Assembly (NCBI RefSeq): GCF_044704955.1
Contig: NC_091985.1
Span: forward strand, 226,672,001 to 226,736,000
Source: Pristiophorus japonicus
Lineage: Eukaryota
Length of the DNA: 64,000 bases
Direction: 5' to 3'
Shown one piece after another: positions 51,901-52,696 of the stretch. The notes under the pieces are model-generated. The model was given only the letters and a program-made list of their open reading frames with translations. It was not told the origin of the DNA and made no database searches. Numbering within the stretch: the stretch's first letter is position 1; the number at the start of each line of letters is the position of its first letter. The translations under genes were made by a program, and so were the position numbers.

Positions 51901-52696
51901 ATGCCTGAGGAAAAGAAACCAGCTTCGCTTCTCGGCCTTTTGGCTAAGATCTGCATAACTAACCTGACCAGCCACCATGACTTCCGGGTGGTTTCTCCCT
52001 GGTCAGGAAGGTATATGCTTACATTTTTGTAAACAGGAGGTGGGTGGGATTGGTGACCCATCCACCTCCACGGAGGTGTGTGGGGGACCTGACCCATCCA
52101 CCTCCATGGCACGAACCTGGTATTGCAGTACTTCCAGGAACGGTGCAGTGGCTCTAGGCCTTTTGGCTAAGAGCATTGGCGCAGAGTGATCCTTGACTGG
52201 TGCAGGGTGACCTCTGGCGTTTGACAAAGAATTGTAACGATTGGATAACGATTGGACATGAATTAAAAAAAAAAAAAAGAAACCAGCTTCGAAAAAGGGT
52301 GCCAAGAAAGTAACCAAGAAAACACCACCGAAGGGCGGCAAGAAGCGCAGAAAGTCAAGGAAGGAGAGTTACTCCATCTACATTTATAAAGTGATGAAGC
52401 AGGTTCACCCCGACACCGGCATCTCCTCCAAGGCCATGGGCATCATGAACTCGTTTGTGAGCGATATATTCGAGCGCATCGCGGGTGAGGCTTCCCGCCT
52501 CGGCCCACTACAACAAGCGCTGCACCATCAGTTCCCGGGAGATTCAAACCGCCGTACGCCTGCTGCTACCCGGGGAGCTGGCCAAGCACGCCGTGTCGGA
52601 AGGGACAAAGGCGGTGACCAAGTACACCAGCTCCAAGTAAAGCTCCACGTTGTCCTGACAGAACAAACCCCAAACACAACGGCTCTTTTAAGAGCC
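51901..52696 (+). pseudogene. H2B: H2B pseudogene interrupted by the snRNA-mosaic insertion, plus a 1-nt frameshift
   Basis: ATG 51901; insertion 51925-52278; extra C at cgcctcggcccac (~52501); TAA ends 52640; stem-loop 52681-52696. Confidence 0.92.
51925..52278 (+). mobile_element. snRNA-derived retroposed element (U2/U1 mosaic, SINEU-like)
   Basis: tcgcttctcggccttttggctaagatc matches U2 nt 2-28; U2 SL IV acctggtattgcagtacttccaggaacggtgca at 52115-52147; A14 tail; TSD aaaagaaaccagcttcg at 51911-51927 and 52275-52291. Confidence 0.88.

Follow-up and report, generated by a model that had tools for sequence, protein, structure and literature searches.

How does a sequence assembled from pieces of spliceosomal RNAs come to interrupt a histone gene, and from where would such an element be transcribed? 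This question is raised by a 64,000-nt stretch of the Pristiophorus japonicus genome (contig NC_091985.1, positions 226,672,001 to 226,736,000 of the forward strand; hereafter the window). An initial annotation, made from the letters of the window alone, had described at 51925..52278 a retroposed RNA of about 340 nt built from snRNA modules and had offered two readings, a SINE family or a genuine variant snRNA. The window copy was retroposed recently and belongs to a SINEU-type family composed of U2 and U1 pieces. We suggest that it borrows both the enzymes of a Keno-like LINE and the promoter of the U2 genes.

Organization and insertion site of the window copy

All modules named in the initial annotation are found by a sequence check at the positions given there, including the exact U2 head, the Sm-like motif, SL IV, the second SL I, the doubled 11-mer and the A14 tract (Table 1). 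Two of its readings change. The hairpin described as foreign to U2 originates from U1 nt 3-52 in decayed form; this piece is invisible to BLAST in the young window copy and was recognised via the older subfamilies. The two hairpins in the SL III position lie where they had been placed, however, they are not predicted to fold in tandem but mostly as one nested structure. Compared with the genome's own U1 and U2, the 341-nt element thus reads U2 1-28, decayed U1 3-52 with a short additional U1 piece, U2 99-147 with SL III duplicated, U2 153-186, U2 7-29 again, about 90 non-snRNA bases and poly(A). Internal T4-T5 runs are present within it.

The Rfam search that had been proposed as a check returns U2 with 53.3 bits against a cut-off of 46. 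No other family exceeds the cut-off for the window copy, and no tRNA, SRP or 5S match appears even at E up to 10. Weak matches to a prion pseudoknot and to microRNAs fall below the cut-off and were dismissed.

The insertion interrupts codon 8 of an H2B gene and is flanked by 14-bp duplications; neither the duplication nor the identity of the target had been listed before. The head of the element has no second copy inside the 64-kb window.

Table 1. Features of the window copy and of the interrupted H2B gene (positions within the window).
Feature	Position	Strand	Basis
H2B gene start, codons 1-8, broken by the insertion	51901..51924	+	Same sequence as the beginning of the intact H2B at 48624
Left target-site duplication, 14 bp (17 bp counting three bases shared with the U2 head)	51911..51924	+	Sequence
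U2 head nt 2-28 (SL I), without the branch-point recognition sequence	51925..51951	+	27/27 against the genome's own U2
Decayed U1 nt 3-52 (SL I) and second short U1 piece, nt 28-47	51958..52012	+	77-86% to the genome's U1 in older subfamilies, aligned to the window copy
Sm-site-like U run from U2 nt about 99-106	52023..52030	+	Rfam and alignment to the genome's U2; varies among subfamilies
Duplicated U2 SL III derivative; hairpins 52036-52069 and 52072-52105	52036..52105	+	Older copies 72-74% to U2 99-147
U2 SL IV	52108..52148	+	32/34 to U2 153-186
Second U2 SL I	52151..52174	+	21/23 to U2 7-29
Non-snRNA 3' part: hairpin, 11-mer x2 (52235-52256), AT-rich end	52176..52264	+	No similarity to the Keno-like LINE
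Poly(A) tail A14; last four As double as the start of the right duplication	52265..52278	+	Sequence
Right target-site duplication	52275..52288	+	Sequence
Remaining H2B gene with an extra one-base insertion near 52500 and 3' stem-loop; pseudogene	52275..52696	+	Comparison with the intact H2B

The surroundings are a histone cluster (H4, H2B, H2A, H3, H1; window 17560-57710) with several damaged copies, interspersed with CR1/L2-type LINE and LTR-element fragments. Elsewhere in the genome, an independent SINE insertion of a different haplotype and with a different 5' joint occupies the same H2B position as in the window (L189, C3804:342071), and another lies near the start of an H4 gene (L142, C19:57444774). 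Histone genes may be favoured as targets.

A family of dispersed copies

An exact 31-mer of the element occurs 4,828 times in the genome, which is a lower bound on the number of copies, and a genome search gives at least 71 matches (best 40 of 1,332 candidates). Target duplications of 6-23 nt (median 11) flank the element at 64 of the 90 loci examined, with a search floor of 6 nt; 26 loci are without a duplication. Of 40 loci sampled in their order on contig C1, 5 extend to U2 nt 1-2, 16 retain a partial head and 19 are truncated at the 5' end; 6 of the loci are tandem or nested. Full-length copies start at U2 +1 to +2 at unrelated sites. Ten sampled copies from different contigs are identical over the body.

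Tandem arrays, with about ten units at L051, have a single duplication recurring between copies of differing subfamilies. Hence, these arrays are formed by sequential insertions. Dispersed copies number in the thousands and have target duplications of their own as well as poly(A), which bears out the first of the two offered readings. We consider it near certain that the element is a SINEU-type retroposon family with many subfamilies.

SINE copies inside U2 genes

The end of the U2 upstream region joined to the SINE body was used as a genome-wide search pattern. It is found at 17 sites, all of which belong to the tandem U2 array that has the type A upstream region, and the reversed-pattern control gives 0. 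In each of the 17 copies 250 upstream bases of the array (2-3 differences from the reference unit) precede the SINE, which begins at +1 and is followed by a poly(A) tract that varies from about 20 to more than 100 bases, U2 38-191 without difference and the normal 3' flank. One more copy in the array, the eighteenth, is truncated where its contig ends. A separate SINE insertion is located behind U2 upstream type B (L183), with 250/250 upstream bases identical. On contig C1832 the SINE is present in 5 of the 28 promoter-bearing U2 units. The small contigs of the array may represent one and the same array assembled more than once.

All 18 promoter-bearing copies are poly(A)-tailed insertions that split the U2 gene at nt 37/38, and none of the 18 is a tail-less coding region between promoter and 3' box. 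Joints of poly(A) to U2 nt 38 number 83 genome-wide. C19 has 16 such joints, 5 of them belonging to the SINE, and the three others that were checked all belong to Keno. The 18 U2-embedded copies likely indicate how such promoterless elements are transcribed. They, together with the Keno partner, go beyond what the initial annotation foresaw.

The array copies are connected to the dispersed ones by shared marks. The 17 copies form two haplotypes (2 and 15 copies). A one-base insertion mark, an extra A at position 107 of the element, is shared by 29 copies, of which 18 belong to the U2 array and 11 are dispersed; C112 and A129 are further array marks. Two dispersed copies match the main array haplotype at all four differences. 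In 2 of the 83 dispersed full-head copies four non-target bases equal U2 upstream positions -4 to -1 (0.32 expected, P 0.04); alternatively, this extension could result from a template switch to U2 RNA. None of the 17 array copies of this assembly has the haplotype of the window or the young haplotype that is commonest. The shared marks leave the direction of descent unfixed. Dispersed sources could have seeded the array, whose turnover then multiplied the incoming copies.

Inspected by eye against the consensus, the type A upstream region contains neither an exact octamer nor an obvious counterpart of the proximal element of U1 genes. A second U2 gene type with a changed SL IV and another upstream region occurs at L052, L053 and L182-L186 (C9:111.0 and 113.4-113.8 Mb). 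It sits in repeats of 14-40 kb, each with an old Keno fragment and a split U2 after it.

Target choice

The 90 loci were tallied for target bases after removal of the 26 without duplication and of 10 more (9 that repeated a shared site and 1 of insufficient length). The remaining 54 dispersed sites favour the bases of the U2 site at positions -3 (30/54, p 5e-6), -2 (29/54, p 4e-6) and -6 (25/54, p 0.001); positions -1 and +1 are biased by the placement of the cut. In a matrix built from the 54 sites, U2 37/38 comes first among 526 plus-strand positions with a lead of only 0.1 bit, and one minus-strand site scores higher. When plain identity is used, 2 of 166 other registers match or surpass the U2 site. 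Judged from these bases, the target preference of the dispersed copies is weak.

Some sites recur. One of them, in an abundant repeat, is used at 10 loci (L005, L009, L020, L051, L054, L055, L057, L063, L106, L224) and another at 4. The repeat resembles the antisense strand of a Gypsy-type pol region, and the arrays there seem to extend on the 5' side, youngest first.

These data also bear on the best-surviving alternative, which we hold for unlikely. It keeps the same SINE family but places its sources among the dispersed copies, transcribed from flanking DNA or from an upstream tandem copy, whereas the U2-embedded copies would be passive insertions at the best site of the endonuclease. Most haplotypes are indeed without an array copy, the tail contains a reversed CCAAT-like word once or twice, and long arrays accumulate at the abundant-repeat site, as Kojima proposed for Mariner-N4 in crocodilians (PMC4494074). 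However, this hot spot holds only 1 of 40 loci in an unselected sample, and the beginning of full-length copies at U2 +1 to +2 is the same at unrelated sites. Besides the U2 upstream bases, a non-systematic look revealed no shared extension derived from flanks. Moreover, loss of source copies would be expected in an array with fast turnover.

The Keno-like LINE

A U2-headed LINE fragment in the array at L054 leads to 40 scored copies with 96-100% identity, many of them in the U2 array. Full copies are 5.7 kb long and have intact ORF1 (569 aa; Pfam zf-CCHC) and ORF2 (1145 aa; Exo_endo_phos, RVT_1, zf-RVT). They terminate in poly(A), followed by U2 nt 38 onward. Keno is a U2-specific Tx1 LINE, the 3' target and insertion position of which are given in PMC6136364; it is treated also in PMC4640811 and PMC4494074. 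In common with it, the LINE described here is inserted 37 nt into U2 with the published Keno 3' flank (L100, L102, L115, L187, L188), and in this respect it fits the Keno definition. An older Keno-like lineage, about 80% identical, also exists.

Of 19 examined 5' ends, 11 lie in U2 genes, 2 behind another LINE tail and 6 are dispersed with a partial U2 head. The head has two changes of its own beside the cut site even inside U2 genes, which suggests that the incoming copy replaced the bases of the gene. LINE and SINE alternate around one target duplication at L106, L108 and L112. Directly behind the Keno U2 head, a CCAAT-like word and an exact octamer are present (L054:2900-2930), possibly parts of Keno's own promoter.

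A zf-RVT search gives 3,758 candidates, and other Tx1 families are present in the genome. A related Tx1 family found in this way was considered as partner and rejected, as it has no tail similarity to the SINE. An Atlas search with the partner RT returns unnamed RT clusters only. The zf-RVT matches at C9:203.10-203.16 Mb, 211.53-211.55 Mb and 223.82-223.83 Mb are spaced by multiples of 7.5 kb, which suggests tandem repeats containing a Tx1 fragment.

Could another L1/Tx1 family supply the enzyme, the shared sites reflecting only a common loose preference? We think this improbable. The SINE and Keno share no 3' tail beyond poly(A) (best E 0.74 for the young and 0.22 for the older body), a point in its favour together with the many zf-RVT candidates and the older lineage. 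Nevertheless, both elements use exactly U2 37/38 and have common duplications in mixed arrays, and the intact ORFs and the high identity of the 40 Keno copies stand against another source; this identity fits the young age of the SINE.

Subfamilies and RNA shape

The simplest older form (L158-L180, with L171-L175 covered in part) consists of U2 with a short internal deletion, U2 7-38, a small hairpin tail and poly(A). It retains the nt 37/38 site and is itself a target of Keno and of the younger SINE at this site. The second U2 SL I of the window copy is likely the head of this oldest form, since ancestral copies have U2 7-38 there. Later forms gained the U1 SL I, the duplicated SL III (still single in copies P159, P162, P168 and P216) and the tail hairpin, and exchanged heads; the head of one subfamily is U2 nt 1-38. 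Subfamilies turn over quickly. Single copies at L055, L162 and L180 have acquired additional U1 or U2 pieces at the 5' end. Short U2 5' pieces (to nt 50-53) are repeatedly placed before SINE or Keno heads (L162, L180, L089, L091).

Folding of the window copy gives z = -5.88, with 0/100 shuffles equally stable. For the duplicated SL III the predicted pair probability is 0.985 in the nested form against 0.015 in tandem hairpins, and the Sm-like site is predicted to be partly paired in the nested model. Along the ancestor series the calculated stability of SL III rises (-14.8, -18.9, -23.1, -27.6 kcal/mol) and the second SL I acquired outer pairs, which together suggest that selection acted on the RNA shape of the element. 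Covariation was evaluated in 38 representatives of 56 clusters from 191 units. It is seen in 1/68 predicted pairs and 3/99 named pairs, the latter with 7/500 shuffles as high; this signal is weak, lies within reach of relatedness and does not count as proof of structure. Binding of Sm and U2B''-type proteins, proposed in the initial annotation, is at this stage a conjecture. In the same representatives the U2 branch-point recognition word is kept in 5 and lost in 33, the U1 splice-site word is kept in none and the A preceding the U run of the Sm-like site in 16.

The second reading of the initial annotation, a genuine variant snRNA, would make the array copies a product kept by the host and the dispersed copies its processed pseudogenes. 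Near-identical promoter-bearing copies in the U2 array and a stable fold with an ever more stable SL III are what speaks for it. We nevertheless regard it as very improbable: each promoter-bearing copy (18/18) breaks a U2 gene as a poly(A)-tailed insertion, with very different tail lengths, the retention of the branch-point, splice-site and Sm-like bases is as low as given above, and the subfamilies turn over rapidly. A one-off chimera or independent template-switch chimeras, for which the extra 5' pieces in single copies could be cited, are refuted as the origin of the family as a whole by the identical five-part layout in thousands of copies, the subfamilies, the 4,828 31-mer matches and the 10 identical bodies, and we give this origin practically no weight.

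Comparison with known elements

SINEU-1, -2 and -3 are published for crocodilians, as the initial annotation had stated for the class; they are inserted in Mariner-N4 and mobilised by Tx1-Mar (Kojima 2015, PMC4494074). The SINEU passages of that article leave the promoter as an open question, describe no copies in U2 genes and report the tandem copies of SINEU-3 as sequential insertions. The element described here has in common with them repeatedly added U1/U2 heads, an internally deleted U2 body, poly(A), internal oligo(T), tandem copies around one target duplication and a Tx1 partner that itself has U1/U2 heads. As in the class, its head is derived from U1/U2 (U2 2-28 identical, U1 3-52 derived), and it is short, non-coding, poly(A)-tailed and flanked by duplications; it forms a transposition unit with shared structure and has a target preference in common with a Tx1 LINE (U2 37/38, mixed arrays). 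Unlike the crocodilian elements, it has a U2-specific partner, copies at +1 of U2 genes and the order U2-U1-U2-U2. No Mariner target was noticed in the flanks compared, which were not classified systematically. An independent origin of the two is likely.

In contrast to Keno, which is autonomous, the SINE is non-autonomous, and the Keno passages of PMC6136364, PMC4640811 and PMC4494074 mention no non-autonomous partner. The R2 and R2/R1 SIDEs of Drosophila offer a parallel: these non-autonomous elements insert at the site of their LINE and rely on the host gene transcript (PMC3414825). The element described here would likewise depend on transcription of the multicopy RNA gene that is its target. 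However, SIDEs are described there as LINE deletion derivatives with a ribozyme, confined to rDNA, whereas our element consists of snRNA pieces, has no body or tail in common with Keno and occupies thousands of dispersed sites.

An internal Pol III promoter from tRNA, 7SL or 5S, the classical hallmark of SINEs, is absent here as far as Rfam matches above cut-off are concerned, these being U2 only. Alu and other SINEs derived from 7SL are derivatives of a structured RNP RNA with a templated A tail, and use an L1-type enzyme with which they have no tail in common; they possess an internal Pol III promoter. The element described here is also an RNP-RNA derivative with a templated A tail and without a tail shared with its putative enzyme source. 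Unlike Alu, it contains runs of oligo(T), and its transcription would need a Pol II snRNA promoter outside the element.

Among the openly accessible articles searched, none was found to describe a SINE derived from snRNA in any lineage but crocodilians, or a SINE inserted at the Keno site. In their relevant passages PMC5786205, PMC5753468, PMC4758252, PMC8143547, PMC7245038, PMC5381603 and PMC5499810 cite the 2015 SINEU paper or concern tRNA SINEs. The SINEU class and the Keno site are already known; within the articles searched, the SINE copies at +1 of U2 genes are new.

Proposed mechanism of transcription and transposition

We suggest, with a probability of about 0.7, that this SINEU-type family of U2/U1 pieces is mobilised by Keno and transcribed from copies homed into U2 genes. 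The sequences make it most likely that the SINE borrows the Keno enzymes and the U2 promoter, and this would answer the question left open for crocodilian SINEU.

Step 1: The U2-like head is placed at +1 of a U2 gene and followed by poly(A), U2 nt 38-191 and the normal 3' flank, the arrangement observed in the array.

Step 2: The external U2 promoter would transcribe the SINE with its templated A tract and the remainder of U2 up to the 3' box.

Step 3: Keno ORF2 presumably nicks the DNA and primes reverse transcription within the A tract, thus the copies would end in poly(A) without the U2 remainder.

Step 4: Most copies land on loose look-alikes of the U2 site, a pattern observed at the dispersed loci, and would be dead ends there. 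When a copy lands at U2 nt 37/38, its head would join the 5' end of the gene by homology with the replacement of nt 29-37, and such copies would thereby become new source genes. The homology-led joining would also reset the element at +1.

Step 5: New U2/U1 heads and subfamilies may arise at the 5' joint, and recutting of old sites would produce the tandem arrays.

Homing to U2 is supported by the 37/38 joint that the intact Keno-like LINE also uses, the duplications of mixed arrays, the target bases, the shared marks and the U2 1-38 subfamily. It is weakened by the lack of array copies for the window and commonest haplotypes, by the small number of marked dispersed copies (11, against 4,828 family matches), by the weak target preference, by the missing octamer and proximal element in the type A upstream region, by the lack of 3' sequence shared with Keno and by the presence of other Tx1 families.

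A fuller version of this mechanism is tentative, and we would give it somewhat less than even chances. The promoterless SINE might survive by homing to U2 +1 via Keno with snRNA-like transcription, while the kept SL I, SL III, SL IV and U-rich site would permit snRNP assembly, stabilising the RNA and delivering it to the Keno RT, with the splicing words disabled. If true, crocodilian SINEU would be accounted for in the same way, and so would the repeated acquisition of U1/U2 heads.

The transcription of snRNA-headed SINEs was left open when the class was described (PMC4494074). Candidate sources of the family lie behind U2 promoters and are told from dispersed copies by allele marks; an intact partner LINE and graded ancestors are also present, and the family is young, thus the question becomes directly testable here. 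Within the literature searched, the finding would widen the range of SINEU past crocodilians and make this the first non-autonomous partner of Keno. With 5 of 28 U2 units filled on one contig (C1832) and with repeated insertions into histone genes, the family represents a live load on two essential gene families.
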